Below, in pieces: positions 5,599-63,910 of a DNA stretch of 64,000 nucleotides. The notes beneath the pieces are model-generated. The model was not told the origin of the DNA, ran no database searches, and saw nothing but the letters and a program-made list of their open reading frames with translations. Within the stretch, counting starts at the first letter, position 1. Each line of letters begins with the position of its first letter. The position numbers were made by a program, and so were the translations under genes. The stretch covers positions 2,647-66,646 of the forward strand of contig CAYGRZ010000004.1 of assembly GCA_964352425.1 (NCBI GenBank). Direction: 5' to 3'. The DNA comes from an uncultured Planctomycetia bacterium (GTDB lineage: Bacteria > Omnitrophota > Gorgyraeia > 2-01-FULL-45-10).

Positions 5599-5611
5599 CC
5601 GCCCCGCCCCC

Positions 5612-19105: not shown

Positions 19106-19127
19106 GGCAAGGCTTCCTCTACATAAA

Positions 19128-19162
19128 GCGGATAGGCGCTTCTGTGAGATGCGCCTATCCGC
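19128..19162 (-). terminator. Perfect 12-bp GC-rich hairpin (gcggataggcgc / gcgcctatccgc, 11-nt loop) 15 nt after the stop of the CBM-only gene. It is probably a partial terminator or an mRNA-stabilising stem-loop.
   Basis: Read directly. It is followed on the minus strand by a TTTATG context and the RBS of the next gene. Confidence 0.5.
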
Positions 19163-19176
19163 TGCGATACCGGTGC

Positions 19177-21488: not shown

Positions 21489-21512
21489 GCGAGGTGCTTA
21501 TGCCCTTTTCCT

Positions 21513-22181: not shown

Positions 22182-22183
22182 TG

Positions 22184-27031: not shown

Positions 27032-27086
27032 ATTCCCCTCCCGTATTTAGTGCTCATGATTATATCATACTGGCATAAATAAACAA

Positions 27087-27146: not shown

Positions 27147-30100
27147 TTACATGGACCGCAGCGCGGCGAGCTCGGCCTCGTATTTCGCGTGGGCGTCGTT
27201 CAGATTGGCCGGCGTGATGGAAGCAAGCCCCTCGAGCAGCATCTTTACCAGGTCGTCCTTCGTGAACATCTCACCGTTGCTATTCCGCCCTGCCCGGTTC
27301 AGCGCCATAAGGATCTTATCCGGATCCCGGTTGAACCCGATATTGAGCAATATGTTATAGAGGGCGGTCGGCGACATCGGCTTCTCGACCTTTATGATTG
27401 CACTCATGGGCCCGTCGAGCACATTCTTCCTCTTTTCGTCGCTCTTCGCCTTCATCGCATCGTTCACTCTCTTGATGATGGGCTTAAGCCTCGTCTCGAT
27501 TGCCGAGAACGTGTCATTCCCTGTCGCGGCGACGATCGCGAGCTTCTTGCCCGACTTCTCCGCGTCTTTGATAATTTCATTGATCTGGTCTTCGGTATCC
27601 TGGTCGAGAAGATTCGTGCCCTTTCCCCTGAACTCCGTGACCGAGCCGCCGAGGTATTTATTGATGACGACACCGACCTTCTGGACGACCTGCTGGGCAG
27701 CGGGATCGATCGCCGTATCATAGAGGAGTATGATTTTGGTATTGTCGGCGATCGACTTATCGAACCACATCGGCCCGATCGTATTACGGAGAGCGGCCGC
27801 GTCGTCGTCCGCTTCCTTCCGGAGCGCGGCCAGGCGGCCCGCTTCCGCAGGCGTCCGGGCAGGCGGTTCCGTCGAAGCGCCTATACCGATACCCGACAGT
27901 TCCCCGGGAGCCGGAAGCGCCGGTACCGAGGGCTGCGGAGTCTGGCCTGCTTCCTCATCATACGCGGGTTCTGCCGTTTCAGGCTTTACCTCTTCGGGCG
28001 TTTGGGCCTCGAGTCCCTTAAGCCTCGCTATCTCCTTATCGAGCGGGGCGACATTGACCGCGCCCTCCTGGCGCAGGCGTTCGGTGACCTCTTCAGTGAT
28101 GCTGACGAGATCCGCCGGCGTCCTGCCCTCGAATATCGTGGTGAGCTTTTCGCTCGTATTGGACCAGCGCACGAGCGCGGTCCTGCCGTCCTTGAGCTGT
28201 ATCTTGAAGCCTGAAACGGTCACAAATCCATCGTCTTTGGGCTGTATCGTATAATCGTTCTCTTTTTTCGCGTCGCTATAGGCCTTAAGGTCGTTCTTGA
28301 ACCGCTCCTTCATCCACGCGCCGATCTTTTTCGCCGTGGCTATTTTGATAGCATTCGGTATATCGGCCGTCACCTCGCGGCTTGAATACGCGGGCGGGAA
28401 CTTATCGAAAAGCTCCGCAAGCTCGTAGCGCTCCTTGCCGGGCTGAAGCTTGAGCGCAGGCGCCTCATAACGGCTTATCGTCTCGCGTATGTTCATGAGC
28501 GTCACGAAGCCGGAAATGGCGCAGTCGCATACCCTCGACGGATAAGCCTTTGATATGTGGAAGAAGTTGTGGCCCGACGCCTCCGCCGTGAAGTACGTGC
28601 GTTTCAGATTGTCAAAATTCTTCATGAACGCCGCATCGTTCCTGAGTTCCGGCTTACCTGCCACGAACTTTTCGAGCTCGGCGATCCGGTTCTGCATAAA
28701 ACCGAGCTGCGGCGGATAACCCGTCGTGATGAAGTACCCTTCGATGATATTCCTGTCCGTTATGCCTGCCCCGGCCTGCAGCTGGGCGTTGATAGTGTTG
28801 ATGAGGTTTAAGAGCTTCGAGTTTGCCCTGACATCGCAGACGATCCTGATGGGCTCGGCACCCGTCTGCACAAGCCGCATCATGACCTCCTGATTAGACG
28901 GGTTTATAAGGAAGCGCTGGTAATACGGCAGCGTCATCTCGAAGGCCGGGATAGCGCGGCCGGTCTCGTCGATGGCCGATATCCTGTCCGCGTCGCCGTC
29001 GAACACCGCGCCGAAGGCGCGCGGGGTGATCGGGCTGACAGGGTTCGCGTTAATGAGCTTCACCAGCCTCTGCGTCGGCTCAAGGGCTTCCGGAAGCGAC
29101 GGGTCCCATATGCCGCGCCCCATATTGCCGTCGGGAGCCATGTTCAGCATGACGGCTATCCTGCGCGCTCCGCCGTCCCACTCTTTCTTTATTGCCGCAA
29201 TAAGATCGGGCTCTTTCGTCTTGTCCATGTCGATGATCTTGAAACCTCTCTTTTCCAATAGCGCCGTGATGATAGGCCCCGCGGCGCCGGCCCTCGGATC
29301 GATGACCACTATCTCGTCCTTGAGGGTGGCGGGAAGCGTCTCGTTCAGCATATTCACGACGTACTGTTCTATACCGCCCGTCTGGGTTACAGAACCGGCC
29401 GGCACATCGGTACGGACGACCGACCTCTGCTTATACAGGTCTGCGAGCTTCTCCGCATAAAGGGGCTCGAGGACCTTGTTGCCGAGATCGACCTTTATCT
29501 TGAAACCGTTCTTCTCCTTAGGGCCGTGGCTGCCCGAAACCTGGACCATGAACTTGTAGCCGCCGCTGTTCTCGGTCGCCATAAGGTTGTGCGCGCCTGT
29601 CGTGAGGAGGTCCGGTGCATATTCGACATTAACGCCCACCGATGAGATGCCGAGCGCCATGCAATACCTTGATATAGGCGTGTGAAGACGTATGTCGCCG
29701 GTAAGGAGCGCCTTGTCGCCCGGTTTCGCATGATAGGTGCCGAGGAGCTTTCCGACAAGGTACATGTTGGCCGGAGTAAGGTTGGCCTCGATGGTCTTGC
29801 CCATTACTTTGATAGGCTGGGCATTACCCCTGACGTCATACCCATTGCCGAAGCCGAATATGTCCTCCGGCAGCTTCGCGGTGGTTTCACTCAGGTTAGA
29901 TTCGAAATATTTGATGAGGTCCTGTTTCGGCATCGCGACTATCGTCTTGTATGCCTGCGGCAACCCGTCTATAGCGAGCTTGAAATTCGCCTCTAATTCT
30001 GACATTCCGTCTCTCATCAGGAGTGCCTTTCTTACATCATACGTGGACCATTTCGCCTCGATCTGCGCTTCGGATAATTTTCGATTTTCAATATGCGCCT

Positions 30101-35117: not shown

Positions 35118-35172
35118 AAACCCCTCTCTTATAATATATACAGTGAATATACCATAGATAGCATATCAGTAC

Positions 35173-35276
35173 AATTTATGTAGCCCACCCCCGCCCTCTA
35201 AAAGGCTGCTTGGCGGGCCCTAAAGAAGGCGGAGGCGGCTTGGGGGGTAATCTCCATTTCCCCTGCTACATAAATT
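35173..35276 (-). promoter_or_regulatory. Structured element in the 239-nt spacer between the two giant genes. A 12-bp long-range inverted repeat (aatttatgtagc at 35173-84 and gctacataaatt at 35265-76) encloses three copies of GCTTGG(C/G)GG and G/C-complementary tracts.
   Basis: Direct reading of 35118..35356. It could be a transcript-processing site, an attenuator, or the promoter/leader of the 2656-aa gene. Confidence 0.4.
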
Positions 35277-35356
35277 CCGCGCTCAGGGGTGCTTGGCGGC
35301 TCCCTGACGCGTCAAAGATCAATATCAAACTGCTGACTCCCGAATGCCGACCAATC

Positions 35357-56300: not shown

Positions 56301-59300
56301 TCGCTTAAAGCGCGCAGATATGCGACCACTTCCCTGCTCATCGTGTCTATGCGTTTATCGACGATCGCGTCTATGGTTTCATCATTCAGCGCGCCTGCCG
56401 GTATAGCCGCCCTGTCAAAACCCATCTCCTCCAGCGCGCTCAGGATGTTTTCGATTGTCGCTGCGATGCGCGCGGCATCTCCCCTGCTCGAGACGGCTAT
56501 CATTTCTGCCTTCACATAATCGACCTGAGAGATGATTCCTTTGTCCGCTCTCTCCTTAGCTATCTTGGCGGAGGCGGCGGCATCGGCCTCGATCCCCTGT
56601 AAAACTTCAAGCCTGGCACGGCTTAGCGACAGCAATTTCATGAGGCGCACGCTATTCACATATCTCGCCCCCAGCTCCTCCATCAGGTCCGTCCTGGAAA
56701 GAGCCGTGTTCAGCTTCTGTATCTCTGCCGTTGAGGTGGTCGGGAATTTTATAGTAAGGCCCACCCCGAGCGGCGTCGTTGTCGTAACGGAGTATGCCTT
56801 TTCCGTGGCTGTCGCGTCAACGTCTCTGGTTGTCGTGCTGAATTTTGCGTGTAATGCCAGCCTGAAATTGCTGTTCTTATCGGCAAATATCTCATTCAAT
56901 ATGCTGCTCTGTATCCCGAATGCCTTAAGCAGCGCCCTGGCATCCCCGCCGCTTTCTTTTCCCCTTGACCGCACGGCCTTTTCTTTCAGGGCAAGAAGTT
57001 CGCTTTGCAGGGCCTGGTTCACAGCCGTCATATCGTCCGTGTCTATCGCTACGGCGTCCGCGCCGTCGTAATCACCCAGGTCCCGTATCATGGCGAGAGA
57101 CCGCTCCCGCGCTTGCCTGGCGACCTCGTAGAGCCGCTTGGCGTCTTCTTTTCTGGCCGTCAGGTCCTGTATGGGCCACGCTTTGGAAGGCCGGGCTCTC
57201 GCCTGTTTATATGCCTCCCCGAGCGCCCGGAGATTCTTCTCGTAGGCATCTTTTGCCAGCGCTTCGGCGGTCCCGGCCGCCTTGTAAATATCCATCGCCT
57301 TCCTGATGTTTAACAGGAGATCGTAACAGTAGAGATACTCTTCGAGCTCTCCGCCTTCCATGTTCTGTCTGGCGATGACCCGGCTTATATCTCTCGTGGC
57401 ATCCCATACGACCCAATCGAGCTGGGCTCCGTACGATACGAAATTCCCCGTCGCTGACGAACCTATGCCGGCGCTCAGCGTAAGCTCCGGAGCATACTGC
57501 GCCCACTTGCTCTGCTTCTTCGCCAGTATCCGCTGTATCCTTGTATTCGACCTCGTGGCCTCCGCCCGTGCCGATTCCATACCATGCCTGTACACATCTC
57601 CGAGCGTGACTTTTTTCTGAGCCTCGACAGCGCCCGTCGTAAGAAGCCCGAGCTCGCTGTTCACGGATTCTATTTCGGAATCTACGGACCTTTGCAGCTC
57701 TTTCTGCTCTCCTTCAAGGCGCAGGCTCTCGGCTTCCTTCCTCTTCAGTTCCTCTGCGGCTCTGGTACGCTTCGCGTTAAGCTCATTTTCAGAGGCCTTG
57801 ATCATGAACGCAAACTCTTTTTCGGCGGCCTCTTTGGCTGCGGCGCGCGCGGCGGCGAGATCGGGTTTCTGTCTGACTATGCCCCGTATGCCGGCCTTGA
57901 CGCGGTCGAGCATCGAGGGCGCCGGCGCGGGGATGGTTGTAGCCGGCAGTTGCACCGAAGGCTTCGGCATTGAAAGCGCGGGTGCCGTCGGTACCGGCGC
58001 TGTCGGTACCGGCGCCGGCGCTGCCTTCTCAGGCAGTATATTCTCGGGCTTTACCCCGGCAAAATCGAACTTCTGAGCGCCATAGATCTCGGCCAGGAGG
58101 CTGTATTTACCGACCGATTTTAAATACTTTTCGACATATTCCGAGTTCTTCGATCCTGCGAGCCCCAATACGAGCATTCCCTGGTCAAACGCGAGTATGG
58201 TCCTGCCCTTTGTCCCTTCTTTCGTTATGACATCGACCCATCCTTGCGGCGTCATTACACTGGGATACGCCGCCTTCAGGCTGTTGATAAGGCTGGATCC
58301 GACCCGCGGGATCACAAGGCCTGTAAGCGCGGAAGCATGAGGCGATCCTGCGCTGGTAAAGACATCCTTAGTATTATTGAATACTGCTACCGTCTCGGCT
58401 ATCGCGGGAACGCCGAATACCGGATATGTGCCGCGCTTGAGCCCGCTTGCCGTAGACAGGAGGGCCGGCAATCCCCTGACGTTAAGCGCATAATCGATGT
58501 GAATTGCAATAGTGTTGAGGTTGGCCTTCGCATAGCCTTCGGGCGATAAGGCGCTTTCGTTGATCCAGGCGTTCGGCAGCAAGGCCTGGAAGACCGTCCC
58601 GTCCCACGTATAGACGGCGTATATCTCCTCGCCCTCCCGCGTAATGTATGGAGTCTTGGTTACCGGTAATTCCATGTTAGTGAACGCCTTGACCGGTACC
58701 TGGCCGTCGCTGAACAGGATCGCCCACAGGGGTGCTATCCTGCTCTCATTGTACCTTCTGTCCAGGTGATATTCGGTTTTCAGTTTATAGCCGGCCCGCA
58801 GCAATCCGCTGCCTATTGTGGTCTTTTTGTTTCCATCATACAATGCCGCCCAACCCTTCTTCTGCGCATCTATGATCTTTTGTGCGGCCGCGGCTATATC
58901 TTTATTCTTCCCGTCATCCTGGAATCTTCCTATCAAAGCGGCCAGGGACCAGCAGAGGTTCCCGTTATCTACCGCGGACACGCCGCGCGCCTCATCCTTG
59001 ACCGCTGTGCCGTGTTTAAACTGGTACCACCAGAACAAGCCGCTGATATTTTGGCTCTTATCCGCCTGCAGTTCCTGCAGGGACCCTAAGGCTTTTCTTA
59101 TTCTGGTGAGGGCCTCGGCAGGCGTAACGCCTTCCATCTCGGCGTCGCCCGAGGCGACCAGCATCATGCAGTTCAGGTATACACCCGCATCCGTCGGGTT
59201 AAAATATTTCCCGGTACTGTCAATGGACTTCCTGCTGCTGTCCAGCAGGATGTGGTTGTACGGCAGGCCCGTAGAACTGTCTATGTTGTCCTTAAAATAC

Positions 59301-62300
59301 CTCAGGTTCTCTTTTATTGCTGCTTTTCTGCCGTTCTCTTCTATCTGTGCCGTATCAAGCGTCTTCACTTCGCTGGGAAGCTGCTCGCGCGAAGGGATCG
59401 CTGCCGCAGGCGGGGCGACTCCGGTGTGCGGCGCGGCCTCCGGCTTAGTGATCGCAACCTGCGGCGCTTGCGGCACAACGAGTTCGCTCTTCTCGAGAGC
59501 GTCAAATATGATACGTACATTTTTCCTCAGCCGCTTGAATCCGTCAAGCTCCTGAGGAGAATACTTCGATATCACTTTAAGCATGGCGGCCTGGGCTTCA
59601 TTCAGCTTTTCGCCGCGCGCCTGCGCAACCAGCGCTTCCGCTCTAAGCCTGTACTCTTCCTGCGGATACACGAGCGTCGGCGTAATGCCTGCGGATATTG
59701 CCACTGCCATGCCGAGCATCCGCGATAAGGATTGCGTAAACTCCCTTCCTGTGCGTTTTTCGATATTCATGTTATACGCGTAGATCACGCACGCCGCGAT
59801 GACCGTGACCGTAGCCGCGATCAGGTAGATGCCCAGGGCTGTGAGCGTAGCGCCCATGGCGCCGAAGAGGAAGTACGCCGAACCGCCGATCGTGAAGGCG
59901 TACATTATCACACTTCTCGAATTCGGTATAAAAGACATGAAGAACTGCCTCCAGAATCCCTGTCCCAGCTTCTCCGTCTCGCGGCCTATGCGCACGGCCA
60001 GCAGCGTCTGCATGGTGAGCATCGCTATGCCTATGATCGCTATCGGAAGCCCTATCATCCCTCCCATTATGGCGGTGGGAGTAACGACCGACAGGAGTCC
60101 GACAAGCCCGATACCTGCGGCCAGGCCCAGCACGCCTCCGGCCAGGACCGGCCATTTTGCCCTGTCGGCCTCGGCCTTCTGGGACATCGTGCTGGCACCC
60201 AGCATCACGGCCATGGACGCGCCTGCCGCGCCTTTAGCCGCGATCGAGGCGGCGATCTCGTCCGCCCCGAACTGAACCAGGAACATCACTACAACTGAAA
60301 CGGTAAGCGCCATTATAAAAGCATTGACGGCCCTGCCGAACCTGCCGGGGGCTATATCCTTTGCCTTTGACTCGAAATCTTTATTATAAATCATCGCGAG
60401 CATGATACTGGATATCAAAGCAAACAGGCTCGACCCGAATGCCAGGACGATGATGGGTATGCCGCCCAGGGCGATGCCGGGATGCGCGACCGCGATAGCG
60501 AGCGCGCCTATCGATGCCGGGATCCCCATCTGCGCCAGTACCTGCGCGACCATCATGCCGATCCATTTTATGGCGGCCACCGTGCCGCCCGTGAAGCCGC
60601 CCTTGCCTCTGCCCTGTACATATGCCATGAAGTGGTCGCTGGTCCTGTCGAGGGCCGATATCTTCAGTCCGGTCGCAAGGCGAAGCACCAGGGCCGGTAT
60701 CAGCATAGCACCTATGGAAAGGCCCGCGCCCATAAGATCGCTGTTCAACGTCGCAGTAAAAGGCGTAATAAGAGAATCTGTCAAAGGCCGTACGCCGTAA
60801 TAAGAGAATATGATGCCGACCCCCAGAATGAAAGTTATCATGGCTATCGACTTTATAAAGTTCGCCAGGAATGGGCTCAGGAAACCGGGCCTCGGAACAT
60901 CTTTGACATCCGCGACACTGCCCTTTAGAGCACCCGCCATATTATCGGCCGCGCCACGCCACAGACCATCTAAAATCGCCCTGAATTCTACCGCCACGGC
61001 ATCAAACTCCGTAAACTCTGTCGGCGGCTGGGCGAGCTGTATGCCGCGGGCGAGCTTCTGGGACAAATACCCCATCCGCTTTCTTATCTTCTGCTGACCT
61101 GTCTGGAATTTGGCGACCGCGCGTACCGCCTTCTCATTCGTGACCTGCCTGGCCGTTTCAAGCTCCACCGGATTCAGGCCGGCTTTTACCTTCTCGTATA
61201 CCGATTCCCCCTTCTCGTCTTTTCCTAACGATGCCTCAACAAGCCACTTGAATTTTTCCGGTGTGCTGGTGCCGTCTATGATATGCGCGATCCGTTTCTG
61301 TAAGTCGAAGATCTCTTTCTCTTTTTCGCGGCGCCTCTCGTCGTTCCTGTTCTCGGCGCTCACTATCATGTCCCACGCCGTGCCAACAAGCCCGCTTAAA
61401 TACGCTTTGTCCTCTGCAGAGCCTGTCGCCCTCGCTTTTCGGGCCGCATCCGCAAGCTCGTCGTATACCGACTTCAGCGTCTCTTTATTCTCCTTAAAGA
61501 CCGACTCGTCGAACGAGAAGAGGCACTCGTAGGTGCCTTCGTTTATTCCTCTGTCCGCACGCAATTTAGTCTGCGTCGCGAGGGCCCGGTATTTGTCGAG
61601 GTCAAGTGACAGGACAGCAAGCCCGGGGGCAAGCTTTCCTACTGGCGGCACCTCTACGGGGACCTGCTTACCGTCGGCAGCCGTTTCGGTCCGCTCGACA
61701 GGGTTGCCCTCAGGATCCAATACGGCTTTGCCGTCAGCGCCTTTTTCAAGATACCGTCCTTTTATACCTATATTTATAGCGCGGTGGAGTACGTTAGTGG
61801 CGATCGTGATCACATTGGCATACCCGCCCATGGCCACCGCCCTGCGCAGCTCTTCCGGATTTTCTCCGCTCGCCATGTTTATGATTATTCCGCGGGCCTC
61901 CAGCTCATTGTGCAGATTTTTCTCTATATAGTCCCTGAAGTCTTTGGCTTCCTCATCATCCCCCAGCTTTATGAGGATCGGCCGATTGTTCGCAAGCCTG
62001 TCACGAAGCTTTGCGAGAGACGCCGACCACTTCTCATCCCGCGTAGCGAAGCCCTCGTGGCCGAGATCCTTAAGCGTTATCTTCACGCCCTCGACGCGCC
62101 GCACCTCTCTTCCGAATATAGCCTTAAAGCGCGAGCCCTCCAGGGTACCGCTGGTGGCCGCAAAACCATCCGTCATCTCATTCTGGGTAAGGTACTGCAC
62201 TATGTTCTGGGCCGCCAGCGTCTCTGTCTCAGGCGAGATCTTCTCCGCTTTCAGCGCTATTTCGATAGCCTGCTGGAGCCCTTCGCCGAAATTCATCCCG

Positions 62301-63910
62301 ATCTTCTCGAACCCCGTAACCTCGTCGCGGACCGTAATCTTGCGGGTCGTTGGATCAATATACAGGTTCCGCCCGGAACCGTAGCGGACATAGAACCTGT
62401 GGGCCCTCAGGGCATCTACCGCGAACTCTTCCCACATGTCGTCTATTAACGCCGTAAGGTCGGGATATTTTGCCGTAAGCTTCCCTATCTCATCTTTGAC
62501 CCCCGGGCTCTTCAACCACGTTTCCATAAATAACGCCTGCTGCGGGTCGTCGTTGGGTTCCATAAAGGAGCTCCCGTTCTCCATCCATTTTTGCACAAGC
62601 GCATCTATCTCTTTCCGGATACGTATCCTGTCCTCGGAATCCGGGAGCGCGTCACCGGAGATTATGCAGGGCGTGGCAGACCCGAATACCAGCATGAGGT
62701 CCGCCTCATCGAACAGATCGAAATATTTGGTATTGCGCAGCGCCTTGGGCGCCCTGCCGAGCATCTCTCGTAAGTCCCTGTGGAGGAACCAATCCCATTT
62801 ACCATATATGATCGCGCATTTTTCGAATACATCTTCGATGGACGCCTTGTCTGTCACAAGCCGGCCATTCTCAAATATGACCCCCCGCTCTTCGCCGTCG
62901 GGACCGGTCAGTATGAAGCCGATGACACCGCCCTTCAACGTACCGCTCAGGATCTCGCCATAATGTTCATCTATAGCCTGCTGGACAGCGCTCTCTTCAT
63001 GGAGCATGATGATCGACTTCTTGCCCTGCTCTTCAAATTTCATAAGGCCGGCGCCTCCGAGGACGAGCGCCTTGCCGCCTCCTGCTCTCAGCTCTGTGGA
63101 CTCGCCGTCTTTCAGCGCGTTCATGGTCGGGATCTGACCTTCCCTGTAGCCTGTCCTCTTATCTGTGGGAATATTGTTTGCGTCCGCGAATCTCTCGTAT
63201 AGAACGCTTTGTAATTCTGTCAGTTTGATACCTTCCGGCGACAAGCGCATATAGCCTTTAACCGCCGGCGCTGCTGCTGGCGCCTCTTCTTTACGTGTTT
63301 CTTCGACTTTCCTTGCTTCATCCGTTATCCGCACTTCTTCCTTGCGTTTTTCCTCGGTTATCCGCGCCGCTTCCTTACGGGTCTCTTCGGCTTTGCGTGC
63401 CGCTTCGGCTATTTCTGCTTCCTCCGCGGCCTTCTTCGCGGCAGCCGCAGCTATTCGCGCTTCCTCAGCATTGCGCCGTTCCTCGGCTTTCTGCGCTATT
63501 TCTCTGGCTGCCTCTTCTGCCTTCCTTGTCTCTTCAGCTACCCGCTCTGCTTCGATCTTCTGCGCAATGACTTCCCGGGCTCTTTTGATATACGCGGCGA
63601 TACGCTCGGCCTCTTCGGGAGGCCTTTTGCTGATATTGCTAAGGAGGACGCCGAGCGCATGCTCTGCTCTCTCCTTGGTGACATTTTTATCCTCAATCGT
63701 AGCCATGGCAGCCGCGATTATATCCGGGGAAGCAACTTCTGCCGGCGGAGTGATGGCGGCCTTTTCCGTGGTAATCAACAGGGCGTTAGCAAGGTCAGAA
63801 ACTTTATTCATAAAATCTTTATAGCTATTTATTTCGGCGCTCGCTAGATAGTAGTCTTTCCCCTCCTTTATCGACTTTTGTACTATAGGGGCATTAATAA
63901 GATACGACAT
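35357..63910 (-). CDS. Giant 9517-aa composite protein (28,554-nt ORF). In order it contains a coiled coil, a SecA-like motor, 3 TM clusters, a GH144-like domain, TolC/OEP-like repeats, a YD-like beta-repeat region, an HExxH motif, a radical-SAM domain with SPASM/twitch extension and a PtsI-like PEP-utilising module.
   Basis: Single uninterrupted frame. I counted the residues in full and the count matches 9517. I verified an anchor: the CxxxCxxC motif at residues 7641-7648 maps exactly to nt 40967-40990. An in-frame stop lies 5 codons upstream of the ATG at 63910. Domain calls come from motif-level reading and are listed as separate features. Confidence 0.9.
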   Translation of the reverse strand: MSYLINAPIVQKSIKEGKDYYLASAEINSYKDFMNKVSDLANALLITTEKAAITPPAEVASPDIIAAAMATIEDKNVTKERAEHALGVLLSNISKRPPEEAERIAAYIKRAREVIAQKIEAERVAEETRKAEEAAREIAQKAEERRNAEEARIAAAAAKKAAEEAEIAEAARKAEETRKEAARITEEKRKEEVRITDEARKVEETRKEEAPAAAPAVKGYMRLSPEGIKLTELQSVLYERFADANNIPTDKRTGYREGQIPTMNALKDGESTELRAGGGKALVLGGAGLMKFEEQGKKSIIMLHEESAVQQAIDEHYGEILSGTLKGGVIGFILTGPDGEERGVIFENGRLVTDKASIEDVFEKCAIIYGKWDWFLHRDLREMLGRAPKALRNTKYFDLFDEADLMLVFGSATPCIISGDALPDSEDRIRIRKEIDALVQKWMENGSSFMEPNDDPQQALFMETWLKSPGVKDEIGKLTAKYPDLTALIDDMWEEFAVDALRAHRFYVRYGSGRNLYIDPTTRKITVRDEVTGFEKIGMNFGEGLQQAIEIALKAEKISPETETLAAQNIVQYLTQNEMTDGFAATSGTLEGSRFKAIFGREVRRVEGVKITLKDLGHEGFATRDEKWSASLAKLRDRLANNRPILIKLGDDEEAKDFRDYIEKNLHNELEARGIIINMASGENPEELRRAVAMGGYANVITIATNVLHRAINIGIKGRYLEKGADGKAVLDPEGNPVERTETAADGKQVPVEVPPVGKLAPGLAVLSLDLDKYRALATQTKLRADRGINEGTYECLFSFDESVFKENKETLKSVYDELADAARKARATGSAEDKAYLSGLVGTAWDMIVSAENRNDERRREKEKEIFDLQKRIAHIIDGTSTPEKFKWLVEASLGKDEKGESVYEKVKAGLNPVELETARQVTNEKAVRAVAKFQTGQQKIRKRMGYLSQKLARGIQLAQPPTEFTEFDAVAVEFRAILDGLWRGAADNMAGALKGSVADVKDVPRPGFLSPFLANFIKSIAMITFILGVGIIFSYYGVRPLTDSLITPFTATLNSDLMGAGLSIGAMLIPALVLRLATGLKISALDRTSDHFMAYVQGRGKGGFTGGTVAAIKWIGMMVAQVLAQMGIPASIGALAIAVAHPGIALGGIPIIVLAFGSSLFALISSIMLAMIYNKDFESKAKDIAPGRFGRAVNAFIMALTVSVVVMFLVQFGADEIAASIAAKGAAGASMAVMLGASTMSQKAEADRAKWPVLAGGVLGLAAGIGLVGLLSVVTPTAIMGGMIGLPIAIIGIAMLTMQTLLAVRIGRETEKLGQGFWRQFFMSFIPNSRSVIMYAFTIGGSAYFLFGAMGATLTALGIYLIAATVTVIAACVIYAYNMNIEKRTGREFTQSLSRMLGMAVAISAGITPTLVYPQEEYRLRAEALVAQARGEKLNEAQAAMLKVISKYSPQELDGFKRLRKNVRIIFDALEKSELVVPQAPQVAITKPEAAPHTGVAPPAAAIPSREQLPSEVKTLDTAQIEENGRKAAIKENLRYFKDNIDSSTGLPYNHILLDSSRKSIDSTGKYFNPTDAGVYLNCMMLVASGDAEMEGVTPAEALTRIRKALGSLQELQADKSQNISGLFWWYQFKHGTAVKDEARGVSAVDNGNLCWSLAALIGRFQDDGKNKDIAAAAQKIIDAQKKGWAALYDGNKKTTIGSGLLRAGYKLKTEYHLDRRYNESRIAPLWAILFSDGQVPVKAFTNMELPVTKTPYITREGEEIYAVYTWDGTVFQALLPNAWINESALSPEGYAKANLNTIAIHIDYALNVRGLPALLSTASGLKRGTYPVFGVPAIAETVAVFNNTKDVFTSAGSPHASALTGLVIPRVGSSLINSLKAAYPSVMTPQGWVDVITKEGTKGRTILAFDQGMLVLGLAGSKNSEYVEKYLKSVGKYSLLAEIYGAQKFDFAGVKPENILPEKAAPAPVPTAPVPTAPALSMPKPSVQLPATTIPAPAPSMLDRVKAGIRGIVRQKPDLAAARAAAKEAAEKEFAFMIKASENELNAKRTRAAEELKRKEAESLRLEGEQKELQRSVDSEIESVNSELGLLTTGAVEAQKKVTLGDVYRHGMESARAEATRSNTRIQRILAKKQSKWAQYAPELTLSAGIGSSATGNFVSYGAQLDWVVWDATRDISRVIARQNMEGGELEEYLYCYDLLLNIRKAMDIYKAAGTAEALAKDAYEKNLRALGEAYKQARARPSKAWPIQDLTARKEDAKRLYEVARQARERSLAMIRDLGDYDGADAVAIDTDDMTAVNQALQSELLALKEKAVRSRGKESGGDARALLKAFGIQSSILNEIFADKNSNFRLALHAKFSTTTRDVDATATEKAYSVTTTTPLGVGLTIKFPTTSTAEIQKLNTALSRTDLMEELGARYVNSVRLMKLLSLSRARLEVLQGIEADAAASAKIAKERADKGIISQVDYVKAEMIAVSSRGDAARIAATIENILSALEEMGFDRAAIPAGALNDETIDAIVDKRIDTMSREVVAYLRALSEKIGAEKTWLLFQNTREYADRLKQAADTLEQDMERLKEGQDARARAEQNRRALERITVAGAIQQAHIDEINNKYKIWKTVMVPGMSVSAAPYGTKAKDAMRYSVTLTSQKEGPLPQSVKDAREQFMAEAEGRLTPETRAIPPKDRKVLNFVYDWESKPIGAGLDIRIEGLPSKKKPMVMQRVAFLLMKERELVAAKNELMHREEAAGAALEANTKRIAALRDRIELEQELKKQLESSLEYQQKEGVYAGVAPDEVNVVNRQIKSSEDELLRLQAEGADLAVEIESLQSIAKEISDLKAAGKYDKAEADAAAIMALLRYLEAWEYAVAAARTGEPYDISLTGEYNILEDTWSFGAFTSLIPFFHNVTVGKFKPDVARTKKDQQMAIGGAERVVIGWINGYRADRDEVISATAGLDAAKEHKNKIAKGLADLEASTVSTPAAITGKRAELADASKRVVEAELVLQEVTAALERSGDRIKALEQQTAPRDGESKEIIKFRKYVEAALAKKDAITALDGKAVKEDAIQRSEEVAAAQAAVDKANIDVQSAWWRTFNIDVGPAYEKYGGADNVNKEIEKKEAATLWKINYRAEDAERYGFKAVSEPDIFFRGLRKANLDKEADVWSRKGVEFNKRMEIEQLYAQLAGERGKVASLLVMLNEQESQLRKIEEYNAHNPVLNDTRLDEYKALIDKTKEIKRAAESRIRLLQLSILYDLKEVGDITSITAAGKDEKEGKPADVNQLLAALTKEPEMKLPVDLDAIWADIVKNNPHIRELENRQKAALIEAAMGRWENIWLSLSASRFDKSYDQAAKKFVNKVDLAWSINLNIKLNKFRLFSWFGGGAKAKETANQLKRDIAQALKDLRKQLDDLMKERTGALKELEAAQKAYHDRPKIVAHMRKAYLEGKIGITQLKEQEEWLRRDEMTLADTIAKISAIDMRIEMLFNNLITKEDSEAFEKKKEAEALPAAGMPAEVAEKPAPAADAERLAAVSAELAIARQKVDILKGRMKELDGDAARIKSRIAPDMNLAKALEKGENNLYRKKIENAVSAEARKAVNSDEVSKIMGALGIKEKQAVSVANMLYRYGIAHKLNPADKDFGEFVEDLAYFSDVLKGEMAKIPKLPSFFEDHLKPLSWEDDLSYAKIGLPAYYARRVAFLMAENPGMTRAQARDRIMAKEAREDLENIGLYNRFDADLANKLEPSRQYLAWEDAVTRRLDRAEWAKLSTDERIDAANRSRDIAQLIHGRAVYEQGDALDSGVLGAVAALPIRNDWTGAQLAKNVELMNAIAPFIKGFYNLNEEAVLKMPEGARLMVLKLMGKRETPAYRQELAKVTDTILMGKTMWWTQFASDRDLSASQVERVLTILANVSKTIEPYIHLITGSEEEREGLRLAITIDVLINKNTWVGRFLNSDGLAPADEQKDNIRLLFTKAYPAAKNFKNLAGYSDAVMFGKHMAMARDFVELLGKEVIEESDTTLMDDIIAYRNEVNRLILDKPIAANQAEKELFVAIKIKQKEAAFGAALPEEEKKLIRDRAEEEFADIYRDGYLSSVADPFIVDDNYRRLSGIRKPVPLKDIAVKLNLRELVSDLADKRVVAISRKGTDFEMVRDHEVDKKIKELEKKADRYGVALDPRTVSSYMEAFRKDFYLVHRQGVINSRVDNFYDEGVTDAATIEKRLSAEFIVDALAKHHWRPLNGEEVANWAQVLLNFIYVSPAEKDLPDDEKYKILTGRMADPADLSIWQDNVKQMLAVTGNYTGTVGKAIRDITNVYTLIYFEQNGYIAAVDSIKKRLKQVEGMDDKKTFNDLFIALEKAGVLDGKIQKLRKSVKDPKFIAWEALRGSIEKVAKANDVYQQERFTKEKPAKLRQILSDIKELTDAYRSDPKMRGMAEFNLIRELEELAADLRDNDADIEEFAKEEPLESSFIKADSLLKKFDEVRKKAANARKEELKLRERLRDAVADREKALGEKLRLAEKAASPFAKEWFFPRMRQRIKNIFSPVSTQREEWEGLVKAVYNARLFYSLDTYREKVKDTLATSGAQIMYKKMQALAAKQGKEPADLMKEKMAEAKGELVNAVYLKAISRASGQEIEIGELGFLQAAIRFGNYLQDAKEKYLSQPRFKNLSQPERKETGDWFIRNKIAKYIRFEALIKREEEAMVKNQTDPNGVPRLSYGQITGTFMELDEAGKGEERETARIRRDFYDASLIQEWANNSPLGYYLGQKMLRNTIREMAQSETGVMTQRDKMQRRINIEFQSQRQYYTNLGPSIEEERNDLFNDQDQFSDIDIQRYNEHMEQLKAITETRPGYMRKARAEAIEKLGSFHKQITYMLLKTQDVPGEKIAGDVKSLDSMIFPDIIRNINLKLSERNKEWTIANKQQIDKWIDLREPVKDERQGKISAYKTRTADKALKDQDLAAIREDIEAVLPGINEQLPPEKRIDPADENSIWDIQRQIYLSGMTASDYLTKTFVHPLEVRELLKNIYSKSKLTPPMEKKLKYYVTQIDMDGWPIDYIRVQLLYGIYLKGEMEKLGVTLNEDALEILVSHMIYNGIMPVPMKAPGTDYYEVFGRRADTLTVEDLQGMDLPVSRTIKMVKEMTDKLASEKYTLDKKTREDLFYIIGLSLNTNIIEPPEAEIVDIEADKIQKIVASQFEDGRIELGKFEKDRDSIIREISQKLKARNIHPANFVKLVNRLIEVKEANAAISQSIKDPTMLGRLEKIRIERGDLEILAVLDKDGFDKDKVIGIMELKALGIKTGSPREKLLIQDVKAPMDVTWNDFQNDRLLSLHETLKNYLDDNVFKGKDPLSDVKLSLEAQEKIEGMSRRDREKMTARIKDRIISRGLVKIDYVKEGKGDTAIIRPRAVRAFSADQDARLQKVIRSIIEMELGKIAPEPKHKLIAGLTYMLISILSIMGFYKIALYRHRREIRKNKKILYGPNANVPAPGTAPAAPTPPVAGAKPAAAPKDTSGQAGAVTIEALMGLFRAMVFISKLVLTGLTLYHFNDITHFTVLGTYSSWLFILLAPVLVWWNYFIDKATKPPIRPVIKWAVPLAVFSCIYISGIPGLNYTLMALASGILVYITISAAVDFGRDTLKLAATAITGRGNQRELTHTFFARLAKLAITTAATSVTAIYALSTINADTSLLGIIAVAAVLYTYCNYCMAELFVAIGTLTVANGALFLGNMVGLFKERAPWDLPKYKLVEKTQRIAKKYKAVIYDIGRQEGPLDVKLIAKTLFDSMINSVKMERVGADKAKYLYEDSAGNKFVPDEQDNLGAWMHSDTALKEAGLIMEEIAQILNARRLWGRDKVTYAHRNFQKHVYNPTHMMKPGSYRSDFEWMLECWTHPHLYVTRLDDDRPKITVAEDASGTLRQGILAEPGTYTIDGVTGEAIVYSDTSKTTEVKRFPRGTYTRSPVYDEENEGFELVTDFAVELLKGEYAIERRTIKIDDREWQVSAESEVYYIDADNPARRYRLLKGDIYDDATGKLIATKDMYDELPKSGLLRDRNDSTQRAKGKDGQELPDRVATIYDQHIYLKDKSGAIRHTLILTKDGKLLDAATGAYFASIDEIGHIDQGVAYKKYILGADGKITPAVNEYGGEYLLTRAAEFDGQRPIIPENLETFIDTLDANGVITERGGAFVKTRAKEGEWKRDPETGNAVTITGDVLVPVGWWSADADGNLIVDEGLKALAGSWHVEKATGDAIHTASGRILAKYGTWKKDLKGDLYAGGITKQEAKLYAREGAITDFFELGLGKTGRETTYFIADRAHSLTRDAGGMLIADTSALRLREVEDGYLANEKDGFVIKGGELLQYPMDGSVSRYDKEPLRRWDLAKDGITSVVQDNIILDQKTEALKQSQRLARYGTFAKDNNGIYRTRRLLAQYDDVYFDGYGNAHLKTTDGELAASGEFVLDEDNNLRRIAVDAGDPVINMNGTFGAGEVAVDEKTGDLIVERTLQQKDGFDIDEEGWAIDNGKNRIARVGTYILVKRDAGYVYAKDMLGNEVEPDIYIQLPIEIDNKNEVISGVAKRIGSRAAYDILGKELWGMYQPQIQYPNIGKSLFARLQSWAQSMLSYISLVFFWIFGKGSAVGKMTFYGPKYLNDVIKKQVLPWTVRSHDFWEAMWTATAYLVGTLLAPIYILEETVTSFSSMIIRMRRWVPGDVEALRREWNAAKAMFAYAQGHGIEAMIAAKKQIRESVLGSANVNLESEHHISGIIRGMLSTPVFTIWLVVLGLIATQIPAVLTGTHPVTARDLFAIVMLILIGQKGSPILRETFERGPRSLKTWANVAGGLASVALLVALPKIIIAAPALAVWAAVVVLLIVILRNPVKKLISVGMKWTEIPVKIGMPAGLVAMFWAATPYIELCLRSVPSAAYLTEDLLKHNFGICAYTIIYVGIATLAGMLQHAMARAASGPALFVKDFFGMVNKVYLTTKRLAVETFLHTSIMMMNLIYGPLDLKKSTKAVIQGREFRWDTLTAVEARLEKGMTVWQAYKEFKWAPIAGITLLVLVLVGVFFPSDYFLFRIFDPAFVFKGFPIFILSWVFGPYAAWYTAKYGGTREHRTQPFQFMIHELNAWMKETGTVMGKAALSDGAAIQKIKELTKNETIYNKDRHALRLYILYLTELDLAGTDKQDLRNEVADAMKMMDLSEIELQHKKIKAWTETEWKGAWDQLNEFARVRVLNEIVKRQKGGLLAGQVDAVKLERINRIMEVLEAAGPRRFFEKYWPDLDIAKRQAVVTKSGATGLERLLDLPAPAAAPAAPAALAPSPIAMKAGVLGGRHDLAWATIIDGQVENYKGIDNGMKAALEALLQRVITLHDLSESAREKVEELLEMGSGDAAAIKRKALMKEKSIRIVEGNDRLMHFTEGADSITLDVDSLAANNELLFMEFIHELMHARLRSMPTNAPPLSPMEEEMYITSKEVELFLAFPQKTQDNILSALKNSDDLDDFKFHKVLQYARDYGISRSSTYLEDYIHSLYEPVGNLARRLKDARVDITQDNKALELAMEALKADGIEVRDRLRIPLLRLLRELLLYPYSSSHEVMKKTGLDIGDLKELYKIVKSSQFMQEMLAMESPNATFIKIARLLMEDEDYVRKILNGEPVYPKIVELHLGLKCPSNCIFCYSQGRDYADRQGKPAIDKERLFALIDDFAANGVRDIYFSGGREPFTNKDSVDVVQYAAGKGLNVYIYTEGTFLDTARAQEVVTHAKQIRVSFNAATPETYEAVYRRPGSDVEWIKSNIRGMVEIKRKTKSDVSIGVSFLAMSQNYKELYMAIKLAHLMGADFFDIRADIIGKIGDFSEEEMKGLLKMIFKIRKMQRLGEFGNMRIDIAERFNVLAGGLVKSAKPVKMPRDCWATLTKIVINPWGEVYRCCLTAQPTFEDRIFQIGDLSTGGKRLHDILVGTTRARKDFDIHKCPSCNVYENNVNLLLEKLNNDLDVGVDINEQSFIPAEAVTAAAPLKDRVSRVVERFTKRSKSLSATTKMMLLAGIGTLASIAFGHEISSMNIAAAGMMLGMVTAGQEGAVGAPPEGATAPYISRAVGEDVVGEATGREGIEKAMLDRAREERDVYEVFKETLPDELRGLEPMPVDFVQKCLTEMFTENHVVDPKNKSKLYNEIFELWQLYLLARKTKEAGQTATHVALNDLKRVTSHDVPVTQVLIATPNRIGADKEFVTMVGDRGIERARTLDLIYDGVYIELLQLQKSPAVAEELSAETAAELLGRANAVNLEGAKALSDKAYGLCYEKLRGIHKCATNGVPGGVWNGIILNYVEDSLTLDGLKSGYKVGDRVKHIRTSPADEMTHLISRIRPQVYRVEKDLKTATGEMAEVFKAMIALYDHILENVRVENGSDSAAAQVRKACEMLLKVPVFARPDTKSRIIRVIKAVDEGYVISEDGVEAEQGKYFACHTAAMAEMSPSTTAAQVAERMFRGVSETIKTARHTAHFALWQWLEANYPVDAQGKRSDEGRLAEEIVKNICLKLDIEEVRLEDIDEVAERARQEKREIVVVSAGLIEDELILRALTEKYKVKAFVSSGGSTSQHAALVATARGATLLLGPPKIVLAKLAHTNASCSFYVSEAGFEAYFYAGPATSDQGAAMAVKVARAKALKDYYLSKQSKEPDEVVRTLDGVETPVYANINVGYNLEKGEFGIEDEGALGALRTAYSSGANGNALARTEFMYGRSQAPDAAHQERLYMGLANLANKTVTIRTFDKQDDKACPALPDTERLAGVNGKPYSFDYYRTKTGREALKTQITAILRAQMLSDYHNLRMMFPMVKTMDDIVFISDLLKEIKTEQFMDELAAQHHKMFRSARKEKAEVVRLLDEMPIGIMVEHRDLVMDKAGNLTFENLMLILDNGLVPIRFLSIGSNDMTASVKEKDRSGITAHDYDKQILGIIEGVVKEAAQRGLPVTICGDAARYHKTLMFSLYLQKKYNIFMIPGVIYGMIPELKTVAGQCSAAACGDLLENWQAKTDDEINKIVRNKTQVVVERIENEPEFIAEFTARMGQSTTTTTTPRLVEAGSFILLGIFVYLALPPWMVLAIGAAAAAAYVIWKQLDRMRPAPVTVNERYITDQAVKTALMMESAREPSGEGYVGDLIHRLEETVEMKEPAEGLPLPKPAKVSAAAFIIGLAGASAETVEAVGRAYGTGTRVVSVTGEEELRKMASEGSPARILLDGTMPVSQITSAEFKQDIASIRLARAYDVIFAMAGIDDATRQEIAEAIKAMLPGTEKMDWDNLLDAASMAAAKDPALRQRLHDTVTSIVEKRRDELATKTKAYRPMELPDASSLKSLMARSAVKKFAMATTEKMAMSNIRFGKGMNRAEALGKQAGGEVVNCFIYGDIYKTEEAARSFIAASGYTGNVNDIKLINKKDRSYADIRADVVDAAGLDEKSMGNIGITAEASELGKPTSAGEKVLVAEEIEMNGVKVVPAINSYEALFLMVTGAVAEGQLPPGVTKNGDIYNFMPPILPLNYGTELRAYWDGIALIRSSA
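36941..38353 (-). other. PtsI (PTS Enzyme I) / PEP-utilising-enzyme-like module: phosphohistidine swivel domain plus PEP-binding TIM barrel (residues ~8520-8990).
   Basis: Colinear matches to E. coli PtsI as I recall it:
- KAFVSSGGSTSQHAALVATARGATLLLG vs [27 protein letters not shown] (His shifted by one position);
- ALARTEFMYGR vs GLYRTEFLFMDR;
- VTIRTFD vs VIVRTMD;
- LRMMFPMVKTMDDI vs LRIMFPMIISVEEV;
- IGIMVEHR vs IGVMVETP;
- FLSIGSNDMTA vs FFSIGTNDLTQ;
- TICGD vs GMCGE. Confidence 0.65.
40061..41038 (-). other. Radical-SAM domain with a SPASM/twitch-like C-terminal extension (residues ~7625-7950).
   Basis: CPSNCIFC (CxxxCxxC) at nt 40967-40990, verified on DNA. A glycine-rich SAM-binding segment IYFSGGREPF follows. 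Downstream lie CWATLTKIVINPWGEVYRCC (C-x13-G-x4-CC) and CPSC. Confidence 0.75.
41648..41662 (-). other. HExxH zincin-like motif (HELMH, residues 7417-7421) in a helical region upstream of the radical-SAM domain.
   Basis: Local context LFMEFIHELMHARLRS. The motif alone is weak evidence for a metalloprotease. Confidence 0.25.
42641..44143 (-). other. Transmembrane cluster 3 (about 10-12 helices, residues ~6590-7090).
   Basis: Helices such as SYISLVFFWIFG, TIWLVVLGLIATQIPAVL, LAVWAAVVVLLIVIL, ITLLVLVLVGVFF and PIFILSWVFGPYAAW. Confidence 0.55.
44231..46273 (-). other. Beta-hairpin repeat region (residues ~5880-6560) with recurring xDxxTGxxI / YDxxG units (YD/RHS-like, low confidence).
   Basis: Units such as DIYDDATGKLIATKDMYDE, TKDGKLLDAATGAYFASIDEIG, YDDVYFDGYGNAHLKTTDGELAASGEF and DEKTGDLIVERT. 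Confidence 0.35.
46751..47638 (-). other. Transmembrane cluster 2 (residues ~5425-5720), containing a Pro/Ala-rich linker (APGTAPAAPTPPVAGAKPAAAP).
   Basis: Hydrophobic helices, e.g. LIAGLTYMLISILSIMGFYKIAL and WLFILLAPVLVWWNYFI. Confidence 0.55.
53411..57763 (-). other. Region containing several TolC/outer-membrane-efflux-protein (OEP)-like repeats (beta-strand pairs followed by long helices), residues ~2050-3500. It is preceded by a Pro-rich linker (PAPVPTAPVPTAPA).
   Basis: Pattern matches to the OEP family: LSAGIGSSATGNFVSYGAQLDWVVWDATRDISRV..., ARLEVLQGIEADAAASAKIAKERADKGIISQVDYVKAEMIAVSSRGDAARIAATIENILS, and DLAWSINLNIKLNKFRLFSWFGGGAKAKE...LEGKIGITQLKEQEEWLRRDEMTLADTIAKISAI. Confidence 0.45.
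58061..59353 (-). other. GH144/DUF3131-like (alpha/alpha)6 domain (residues ~1520-1950), paralogous to the three standalone hydrolase-like proteins of this window.
   Basis: STGLPYNHILLDSS...GVYLNCMMLVASGD matches NGLIKDSS...VAAVGFGLAAICVG. GLFWWYQFKHG...VSAVDNGNLCWSLAALIG matches GFLYHFLDMRTG...VSSIDTALFIAGALYAGE. YTWDGTVFQALLPNAWIN matches CYTGSLFTYQYSHAFID. Confidence 0.5.
59651..60883 (-). other. Transmembrane cluster 1 (about 10 hydrophobic helices, residues ~1010-1420).
   Basis: Repeated 20-25-residue Ala/Gly/Ile/Leu-rich stretches (e.g. MITFILGVGIIFSYYGV, GIPIIVLAFGSSLFALISSIMLAMIY). Confidence 0.6.
61481..63148 (-). other. SecA-like preprotein-translocase motor module (NBD1, preprotein-binding domain and NBD2; residues ~255-810) with degenerate catalytic motifs.
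   Basis: Colinear matches to SecA from my memory of its sequence:
- ELRAGGGKALVLGG vs EMRTGEGKTLTATLP (Walker A: GK kept, T replaced by A);
- AIIYGKWDWFLHRDLRE vs DITYGTNNEYGFDYLRDN;
- LFDEADLMLVFGSATPCIISG vs [21 protein letters not shown];
- ALRAH identical;
- GLQQAIE vs GLHQAVE;
- VITIATNVLHRAINIG vs VTIATNMAGRGTDI (motif VI);
- LRADRGINEGTYECLFSFDE vs [22 protein letters not shown]. Confidence 0.65.
63281..63628 (-). other. N-terminal Lys/Glu/Ala-rich coiled-coil segment with degenerate tandem repeats (residues ~95-210).
   Basis: The protein repeats (RKAEETRKEAARITEE / KRKEEVRITDEARKVEETRKEEA). A matching ~24-36-nt periodicity (cttcc...gcg units) is visible in the DNA. Confidence 0.6.

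Follow-up and report, generated by a model that had tools for sequence, protein, structure and literature searches.

The window analysed here, a 64,000-nucleotide stretch of contig CAYGRZ010000004.1, carries a Candidatus Omnitrophota giant-gene pair, G1 and G2, and downstream of it a β-1,2-glucan gene set. Between 63910 and 588, each sizeable open reading frame (ORF) is encoded on the minus strand (Table 1). From G1 the order is G2, a HAMP protein, GH144a (GH, glycoside hydrolase), a 492-aa protein, a solute-binding protein (SBP), a response regulator and a histidine kinase. A CBM11 protein (CBM, carbohydrate-binding module), GH144b, a TPR protein, G3, GH144c/DUF3131 and two MalFG-type permeases follow, and the series ends with a 269-aa protein without assigned function, a ROK protein with a helix-turn-helix (HTH), an M48 peptidase and one further gene. 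The start of G1 is 90 nt from the window end, and any upstream type II secretion system (T2SS)/Tad locus falls outside the window. An earlier, sequence-only reading had placed a GH94 phosphorylase, a phosphoglucomutase-like (PGM) domain, a PtsI-like domain and GH144-like domains on three adjacent, co-directional genes, and had seen in them one system for building or remodelling an envelope glucan. The genes do share a strand, but positions 27147–63910 contain G1 and G2 alone, and the GH94 gene (8696–14938, G3) lies 12 kb and nine genes downstream of G2.

Table 1. Features of the giant-gene pair, the junction and the glucan cassette (window coordinates)
Feature	Position	Strand	Remarks
G1, giant membrane protein of Omnitrophota giant-gene type with SecA-like domain	35357..63910	-	single 28.55-kb ORF, 9517 aa
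Divergent SecA-like ATPase core (NBD1, PPXD, NBD2), G1 aa 364-807	61490..62821	-	phmmer E 2e-17
Predicted β-1,2-glucanase module, SGL clan 'Group 1' (EeSGL1-like), G1 aa 1530-1949	58064..59323	-	PDB match
Weak, uncertain OEP/TolC-like match, G1 aa 3290-3475	53486..54043	-	PF02321, 20.9-22.9 bits vs cut-off 22
Radical-SAM/SPASM module, DesII-like, G1 aa ~7552-7945	40076..41257	-	PF04055 E 1.6e-10, plus SPASM
PtsI/PPDK-like phosphoenolpyruvate (PEP)-utilising module (His domain and PEP-binding barrel), G1 aa ~8526-8952	37055..38335	-	Pfam, NCBIfam
C-terminal region common to other upstream giants, G1 aa 9179-9517	35360..36376	-	32% identity to P0147 C-terminus
G2, member of Omnitrophota family	27147..35117	-	2656 aa; signal/anchor, ~600-aa N-domain, variable sugar-phosphate modules
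Family-defining N-domain, G2 aa ~50-620	33258..34970	-	55-70% identity across family
PGM/PMM-like (α-D-phosphohexomutase) module, G2 aa ~1759-2345	28083..29843	-	PF02878 and PF02879 pass cut-offs
Intrinsic-terminator-like hairpin right after G2 stop codon	27086..27117	-	13-bp stem, 10 GC pairs
Extended -10 promoter-like motif TGATATAAT between hairpin and HAMP gene	27059..27067	-	TGnTATAAT box
222-aa membrane protein with HAMP domain, first cassette gene	26363..27031	-	PF00672
GH144a, secreted endo-β-1,2-glucanase homolog	25089..26453	-	PF10091 E 1.3e-70; signal peptide after internal Met
Conserved 492-aa protein with signal or anchor	23539..25017	-	between GH144a and SBP
Lipoprotein SBP of ATP-binding cassette (ABC) importer	22184..23509	-	SBP_bac_1 E 8.5e-41; lipobox FSGC
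Two-component system: OmpR-type response regulator and HAMP/HisKA histidine kinase	20016..22406	-	Pfam
Secreted CBM11-like protein	19177..19800	-	PF03425 E 3.4e-7; signal peptide
GH144b, β-1,2-glucanase homolog with CBM	16814..19330	-	PF10091 E 1.5e-63; weak CBM30 match
TPR protein with signal peptide	14988..16817	-	profile matches
G3	8696..14938	-	2080 aa; signal peptide, CBM11-like β-sandwich, ~800-aa helical membrane domain, Cgs-type GH94 (GP1-3)
GH144c/DUF3131, third β-1,2-glucanase-clan protein	6633..8699	-	PF10091 E 7e-23, plus DUF3131; signal peptide
Two MalFG-type ABC permeases	4717..6556	-	BPD_transp_1 twice
ROK-family protein with N-terminal HTH, NagC/Mlc-like, probably regulator	2682..3911	-	PF00480

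A glucanase-like module lies within G1 itself. A weak PF10091 match appeared when G1 was scanned in segments of 1000 aa, and comparison with the PDB then aligned aa 1530–1949 with the full length of 8xuj_A (E 3.1e-53, 184 bits). The structure is that of EeSGL1, which belongs to 'Group 1' of the SGL clan and has been characterised as an endo-β-1,2-glucanase, with D149 and E221 proposed as catalytic residues (PMC12102758). Both candidates are kept in G1, as the D of VDNG (aa ~1648) and the E of NESR (aa ~1723), and also in 12 aligned homologous modules. Judged from its sequence, the segment is a predicted β-1,2-glucanase module which aligns with the whole of EeSGL1, catalytic residues included, but which is here one module of a 9517-aa protein. 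Immediately ahead of it lies the first hydrophobic cluster of G1, with nine segments. The module shares 25% identity with the 688-aa GH144 protein of the window (E 1e-22). The GH144-like domains named earlier are thus found in three separate genes (PF10091 E 7e-23 to 1e-70), with one more, which the earlier reading had half seen, inside G1.

An exhaustive HMMER search returned 287 relatives of this module. The best of them, P0145 (49% identity), lies within a 7976-aa protein, and P0147 (41%) within one of 7316 aa; several more are in proteins of 3000–4600 aa, two of them named Omnitrophota. In locus L006, P0147 is the giant that precedes the G2 homolog, and the glucan cassette is present there too. 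The SGL, radical-SAM and C-terminal modules occur in both G1 and P0147, in a different order. Both proteins are mosaics, and most of the sequence outside the common modules is not alignable. Since G1 and P0147 each hold a glucanase module and each lie upstream of the same cassette, a connection between the giants and the glucan genes is plausible.

The remainder of G1 resembles other Omnitrophota giants. A Kyte-Doolittle scan, which considers hydropathy only, counted 21 hydrophobic segments in three clusters (aa 1013–1365, 5425–5690 and 6743–7040). Near the N-terminus (aa ~100–200; window 63300–63910, minus strand) there is an AEEARKAEE-like stretch of low complexity, in which Ala, Glu, Lys and Arg abound. 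The SecA-like match covers residues ~162–577 only of E. coli SecA, with no scaffold/wing part, and the Pfam P-loop_SecA and SecA_DEAD models score under their cut-offs. A DEAD motif is present at aa 401 and a GxGKT Walker A was not found in the first 1000 aa, so that the ATPase competence of this region is uncertain. The OEP/TolC-like match of G1 has a borderline score (21–23 bits) and a location in a coiled-coil-rich region, and is not used as support.

Towards the C-terminus of G1, the radical-SAM module matches TIGR04426 rSAM_desII (E 1.2e-20) and PDB DesII 8hzv (E 3.5e-12), and has a CxxxCxxC motif (C7641/7645/7648) as well as further Cys at 7879–7944, in a SPASM-type region. DesII, a TDP-sugar enzyme, is its nearest relative and gives it a carbohydrate flavour, with a similarity too weak to name the substrate. 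In the PEP-utilising module, PEP-utilizers_C (PF02896) matches at E 1e-21 to 1.7e-23, and TIGR01417 PTS_I at E 1.8e-23. The TIGR01417 match has 82.8 bits, where the cut-off is 341.7, and its first aligned profile position is 151 (of 565). Comparison with 2bg5 indicates that RTE, IRTxD, SIGSND and CGD are kept, including the catalytic Arg, Asn-Asp and Cys; the His loop, GGSTSQHAA, has a one-residue insert. The PtsI-like domain described earlier is recognisable in its PEP barrel and His domain, but the HPr-binding domain is absent from G1 and no partner genes of the phosphotransferase system (PTS; HPr/EII) occur in the window. The C-terminal region of G1 was also detected by tblastn in L002–L004 and L006. 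At Pfam E <= 0.1, no glycosyltransferase (GT), methyltransferase, NUDIX or peptidase domain was found in G1, and GGDEF was also not detected.

G2 belongs to a family with 245 homologs, of which 120 listed matches were used to read domain content. Among these, the Pfam content varies, with PGM, UGPase, PFK, PGI, PGK, transaldolase, CofD, NTP-transferase and ROK domains, whereas the N-domain defines the family and has the invariant motifs IQDAHCN, VEGAxGxxDT, GEITGxE and GGFH. The AlphaFold2 (AF2) model of the N-domain (pLDDT 81) shows an α/β core into which a large helical element is inserted, and Foldseek gave no significant match for it in the PDB; the model weakly resembles erythromycin esterase and ChaN. 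The N-domain also occurs as stand-alone ORFs of 520–570 aa in distant metagenome loci (L141, L142, L150–L152, L155, L156, L158, L159, L163, L165, L168 and L169).

The mutase-like module of G2 has matches to PGM_PMM domains I, II and IV at aa 1773–2345, the first two above the Pfam cut-off and the third weak, and it matches TIGR03990 at E 3.6e-25. Alignment with PDB 3uw2 shows that three loops are kept, those for phosphoserine (GSHGP), metal (DGDADR) and phosphate (RWSNTSE). Domain III with its sugar loop was not detected by Pfam or by inspection of motifs. The earlier PGM-like assignment holds in this reduced form, for domains I, II and IV. From the residues retained, both this module and the PEP-utilising module of G1 look catalytically plausible. 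Nothing credible appeared with Pfam at E <= 1 in G2 aa 640–1500, in aa 1490–1740 or in the C-terminal domain. The G2 N-terminus has positive charge, a hydrophobic stretch and an AFA motif, a Sec-type signal/anchor which predicts that the bulk of the protein is extracytoplasmic. Given this signal, a hand-off of glucose-1-phosphate (G1P) from a cytoplasmic GH94 to the PGM module of G2 is not supported.

The presence of a GH94 phosphorylase at the locus was confirmed in G3, where the supersandwich and catalytic domains match Pfam at E 1e-62 to 1e-66 and the GH94 motifs, GDWND included, are intact. With an E of 7e-109, aa 1018–1280 align to residues 1544–1782 (GP1) and aa 1309–2058 to residues 2031–2767 (GP2-3) of the cyclic β-1,2-glucan synthase Cgs. 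Synthesis by Cgs depends on GT84 and a cyclase, the GH94 part only trimming the chain length (Cgs/NdvB, PDB 8RF0/8RF9; PMC10901819). G3 resembles Cgs/NdvB in being a large membrane protein and in the homology of aa 1018–2080 to GP1 and GP2-3. It differs in lacking GT84, the CY (GH189) cyclase and the Rossmann-like insert, and its N-terminal part consists of an exported CBM11-like domain and the ~800-aa helical membrane domain, the latter unrelated to Cgs.

Several lines of evidence led us to reject G3 as a Cgs-type synthase. In aa 1–1000, phmmer against the PDB gave no GT84 match, and the AF2 model (pLDDT 78, pTM 0.77) has a β-sandwich and an all-helical region there, with no Rossmann/GT-A fold. 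Foldseek of the model against the PDB returned CBM (CBM11) matches alone, the ~800-aa helical domain being without structural match, and nothing in G3 aligns to the cyclase (CY/GH189), Cgs residues 979–1535. The G3 family comprises 24 matches, mostly of ~1820–2170 aa and with one common domain order; it could represent a coupled machine which binds, translocates and phosphorolyses glucan. Named homologs of G2 and G3 are Candidatus Omnitrophota/Omnitrophica, with the exception of one partial Isosphaeraceae fragment among the G3 matches.

The other cassette genes fit an import system. SBP and the two permeases would form an SBP-dependent ABC importer, with sophoro-oligosaccharides as the putative ligand. 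The HAMP protein is 59–66% identical, and immediately 5' of GH144a, in L002–L004, L006, L008–L011, L088, L099, L111 and L129. For the 492-aa protein there was no Pfam (E <= 1) or NCBIfam match; it is present in every glucan cassette seen (36–67% identity) and is a candidate for a new β-1,2-glucan-related protein. Known β-1,2-glucan clusters are represented by the GH144 SGL of Chitinophaga pinensis, the SOGP of Listeria innocua and a Sopn-binding SBP (PMC11842490, PMC12102758). The cassette is like these in bringing together GH144-clan endo-glucanases, an SBP with importer permeases, GH94 and local regulators. It is unlike them in having three GH144 paralogs plus a fourth module in a giant, no β-glucosidase, a GH94 that is a 2080-aa Cgs-type membrane fusion instead of a soluble SOGP, and two extra conserved proteins, the HAMP protein and the 492-aa protein.

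These genes bear directly on the proposal that the giants and the glucan genes synthesise or remodel an envelope β-1,2-glucan of the cell itself. In that scheme the PGM module supplies G1P, G3 polymerises it by reverse phosphorolysis and exports the product through its membrane domain, and GH144 trims it. The closeness of the G3 GH94 region to the phosphorylase part of the synthase (E 7e-109), its synthase-like fusion to a large polytopic membrane domain, the reversibility of GH94 reactions (PMC11842490), the GH144-like fold of the Cgs cyclase and the PGM module in G2 are all in keeping with it. Yet elongation by Cgs requires GT84, its GH94 merely trimming length, and neither GT84/GT2 nor a cyclase is found in the sequence or AF2 model of G3. 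Moreover, no GT84/GT2 glycosyltransferase or cyclase domain was detected among G1, G2 and the cassette proteins, by sequence and, for G3, by model. The cassette combines endo-glucanases that carry export signals with the genes of an SBP-dependent importer, and in other phyla this set of enzymes makes up operons of catabolic type with no giant. A soluble 790-aa GH94 is found beside SBP in some syntenic genomes, and G2, which contains the PGM module, begins with a signal peptide. That the locus makes an envelope glucan, as the sequence-only reading had favoured, is hence improbable. The signal-peptide glucanases, the lipoprotein SBP and the permeases, together with the lack of GT84 and cyclase in G3, argue for uptake and phosphorolysis of an external glucan.

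Expression signals at the junction suggest that G2 and the cassette are separate units. A GC hairpin with a T-run follows the stop codon of the G2-family gene in 10/10 loci (window, L002–L007 and L088–L090). The extended -10 motif of the window is the same in L088, reads TGCTATAAT in L006 and has one mismatch in L002. With these two elements in place, one operon over the giants and the cassette is unlikely; the giants and the cassette are better described as neighbours with separate expression signals. Mobile genes have been inserted between the G2 homolog and the cassette in L003 and L004. More generally, the borders of G2-family genes carry mobile or defence genes (ORF6N, IS200/Y1 transposase, DDE transposase, MazE/AbiE and AAA_14), located at L003 19195–20438, L004 21342–21602 and 5461–9853, L091 6193–7239 and L124 19886–20575. 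This suggests that the junctions are insertion hotspots.

Synteny was followed forwards from G2 in ten loci with downstream DNA, the window and nine fetched contigs. The order HAMP-GH144-unknown-SBP comes directly after the G2 homolog in six of the ten (window, L002, L003, L004, L006 and L088), and N-domain identity across these glucan-cassette loci is 54–65%. Three others have different carbohydrate gene sets at this position: GH113 mannan/ABC/ROK in L005, GFO oxidoreductases/ABC in L007 and GFO/GH113/GH94/GH116 in L090. In L089 (21861–30533), no sugar cassette comes after the G2-like gene: its next neighbour encodes a small CBM11 protein, behind which lies another giant, of 9457 aa. A metagenome scan added 79 loci, many of which gave no match. 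The glucan cassette was recovered in L099, L111 and L129, and a mannan cassette in L120, L130, L131 and L138; further neighbours were SBP/ABC in L145, an MFS_2 sugar transporter in L096, transposases in L091 and L124, and unrelated genes (nitroreductase, β-lactamase-like) in L093. The glucan cassette therefore follows G2 homologs in nine loci in all, the window and eight others. The expected conservation of synteny was seen in these nine but not in relatives with mannan or other cassettes.

In the reverse direction, 80 species-representative loci were examined from GH144a. Upstream of HAMP in L010 and L011, which contain close GH144a orthologs, there are ORFs of at least 1300–1800 aa. Phycisphaerae, Verrucomicrobia and unclassified genomes contain compact GH144-(GH144c)-SBP-permease-permease-GH94 operons without giants. 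The cassette is thus self-sufficient, and its linkage to the giants is clade-specific.

Such a distribution could also mean that the two parts are uncoupled, the sequence past the G2 terminator being a hotspot which accepts interchangeable uptake cassettes, with the glucan set inherited in one clade. The variety of cassettes after G2 homologs (glucan, GH113 mannan, GFO/ABC, MFS_2 or unrelated), the IS200/Y1, DDE transposase, ORF6N and toxin-antitoxin genes at the junctions, the hairpin in 10/10 loci with the extended -10 between G2 and the cassette, and the occurrence of the glucan cassette without giants in other phyla all fit this explanation. On the other hand, G1 and the shuffled P0147 keep a glucanase module which matches the cassette specificity, the gene order persists at 54–65% N-domain identity and across mobile-element insertions, and most giants have sugar-import genes downstream, according to West-Roberts et al. 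(2023, bioRxiv 10.1101/2023.11.21.568195). We consider an uncoupled neighbourhood rather unlikely. The earlier statement that the genes do not look like unrelated passengers agrees with the G2-HAMP-GH144-unknown-SBP order in nine loci and with the glucanase module in G1 and P0147, and the individual module assignments have held.

The PGM-like module of G2 and the PtsI-like module of G1 appear in a different light. A PEP-utiliser is found near the C-terminus of upstream giants whatever follows, be it mannan genes (L005), glucan genes (L006 and L088) or a giant (L089). Likewise, PGM modules are present in G2 homologs which precede glucan cassettes, a mannan cassette (L005) or another giant (L089), and members of the G2 family swap PGM for GPI, PFK, UGPase or other enzymes. 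Since the enzyme content of the G2 family is variable and PEP modules lie ahead of mannan, glucan and giant neighbours alike, these modules are generic cargo of the giant family and not dedicated partners of the cassette. The idea that they work specifically with GH94 is not retained.

The general theme of such giants is already known. West-Roberts et al. describe Omnitrophota giants with divergent SecA_DEAD, many transmembrane (TM) helices, PGM/PMM, GPI and 'pyruvate-diphosphate kinase', with SBP, transporter and glycosyl hydrolase genes downstream of most of them. In Nielsen & Lui (2026, bioRxiv 10.64898/2026.06.07.730766), PGM, radical SAM and ROK are reported as parts of a Pfam module named 'sugar metabolism', and GH flanks are reported too. 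G1 and G2 match these published accounts. 'Archaeovorin'-type giants (also Seymour et al. 2023, PMC10066038) share with our locus an ORF >20 kb with many TM segments, a SecA_DEAD-like region without scaffold/wing, radical-SAM and PEP modules in G1, PGM/PMM-like in G2, an Omnitrophota origin, and SBP, ABC-permease and glycoside-hydrolase genes downstream. G1 differs in its smaller size (9.5 kaa), and the GT, methyltransferase, NUDIX, peptidase and GGDEF domains were not detected in it, nor was there a PilZ match among the genes downstream of G1/G2. Of the Archaeovorin-type domain set (GT, methyltransferase, GH, peptidase and NUDIX), GH (SGL) alone was detected in G1, of which ~80% is unassigned. 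Neither β-1,2-glucan specificity nor an SGL module is mentioned in the accessible parts of the giant-gene accounts compared, and no link between Omnitrophota and GH144 was found in the literature searched. What is new is the clue to a β-1,2-glucan substrate.

Exported giants might also deliver sugar-phosphate enzymes and a glucanase into the cytoplasm or periplasm of a host or prey, redirecting its carbohydrate pools to sugars that can be exported while the cassette collects the products. Behind its Sec-type signal, G2 carries enzyme modules with their catalytic loops kept, West-Roberts et al. predicted such domains to be extracellular, and Omnitrophota have been reported as predatory or episymbiotic. 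Delivery seems very improbable, as nothing observed points to it, the prediction of localisation is crude, little sugar phosphate or cofactor is available outside cells, and Nielsen & Lui favour anchoring of such metabolic modules at the cytoplasmic face.

Taken together, our results suggest, with a probability of about 0.6, that the locus combines an Omnitrophota giant pair with a separately transcribed β-1,2-glucan utilisation cassette which works in the catabolic direction. The link between the giants and the glucan genes looks real, and points to feeding on glucan rather than to building it. G1 would be anchored in the cytoplasmic membrane, with its SecA-like, radical-SAM and PEP-utilising modules inside and, on the predicted topology, its glucanase outside. 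The G1 module, the three exported GH144 proteins and the CBM11 protein would cut external β-1,2-glucan to sophoro-oligosaccharides, which the lipoprotein SBP and the two permeases would import. G3 may help uptake, its outward CBM11-like domain being coupled through the membrane domain to GH94, and phosphorolysis, which is established GH94 chemistry, would give glucose-1-phosphate for glycolysis. The HAMP protein, the two-component system and the ROK regulator may control the cassette. As a speculation, the substrate could be periplasmic or secreted β-1,2-glucan, such as cyclic glucans or osmoregulated periplasmic glucans (OPG), of Gram-negative neighbours or prey.

Several observations weigh against this interpretation. 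In its GH94 domain, G3 is closer to Cgs, a synthase, than to the catabolic SOGPs. No β-glucosidase and no ABC ATPase were found among the cassette genes, and the ~80% of G1 without an assignable domain leaves room for a cryptic glycosyltransferase. The predicted topology is based on crude hydropathy counts. The hairpin in 10/10 loci, the extended -10 and the mobile insertions part G2 from the cassette, so that co-regulation is only a possibility. By our own tally, the glucan cassette is present in only ~9 of ~35 informative G2-family loci, so that the linkage is not obligatory, and five distant Omnitrophota-type GH144 loci (L012, L016, L019, L026 and L027) have no giant in the 9–10 kb upstream of them.

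Most of the sequence of Omnitrophota giants is unannotated. Here, one of them contains a module from a characterised, substrate-specific enzyme family and adjoins a cassette for the same rare polysaccharide, which provides a hypothesis on the target, the β-1,2-glucan of Gram-negative neighbours. It is possible, though doubtful, that the giants of this clade are specialised for harvesting the cyclic or osmoregulated periplasmic β-1,2-glucans of Gram-negative bacteria. A glucanase module exposed at the surface of the giant would then give access to the glucan of an attached host or prey, with the cassette, including the G3 family as a membrane-embedded CBM-GH94 fusion that had not been described before, importing and phosphorolysing the products and the giants of sister clades matched to mannan or other cassettes. 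If this is true, the downstream cassette would be a read-out of what each giant attacks.

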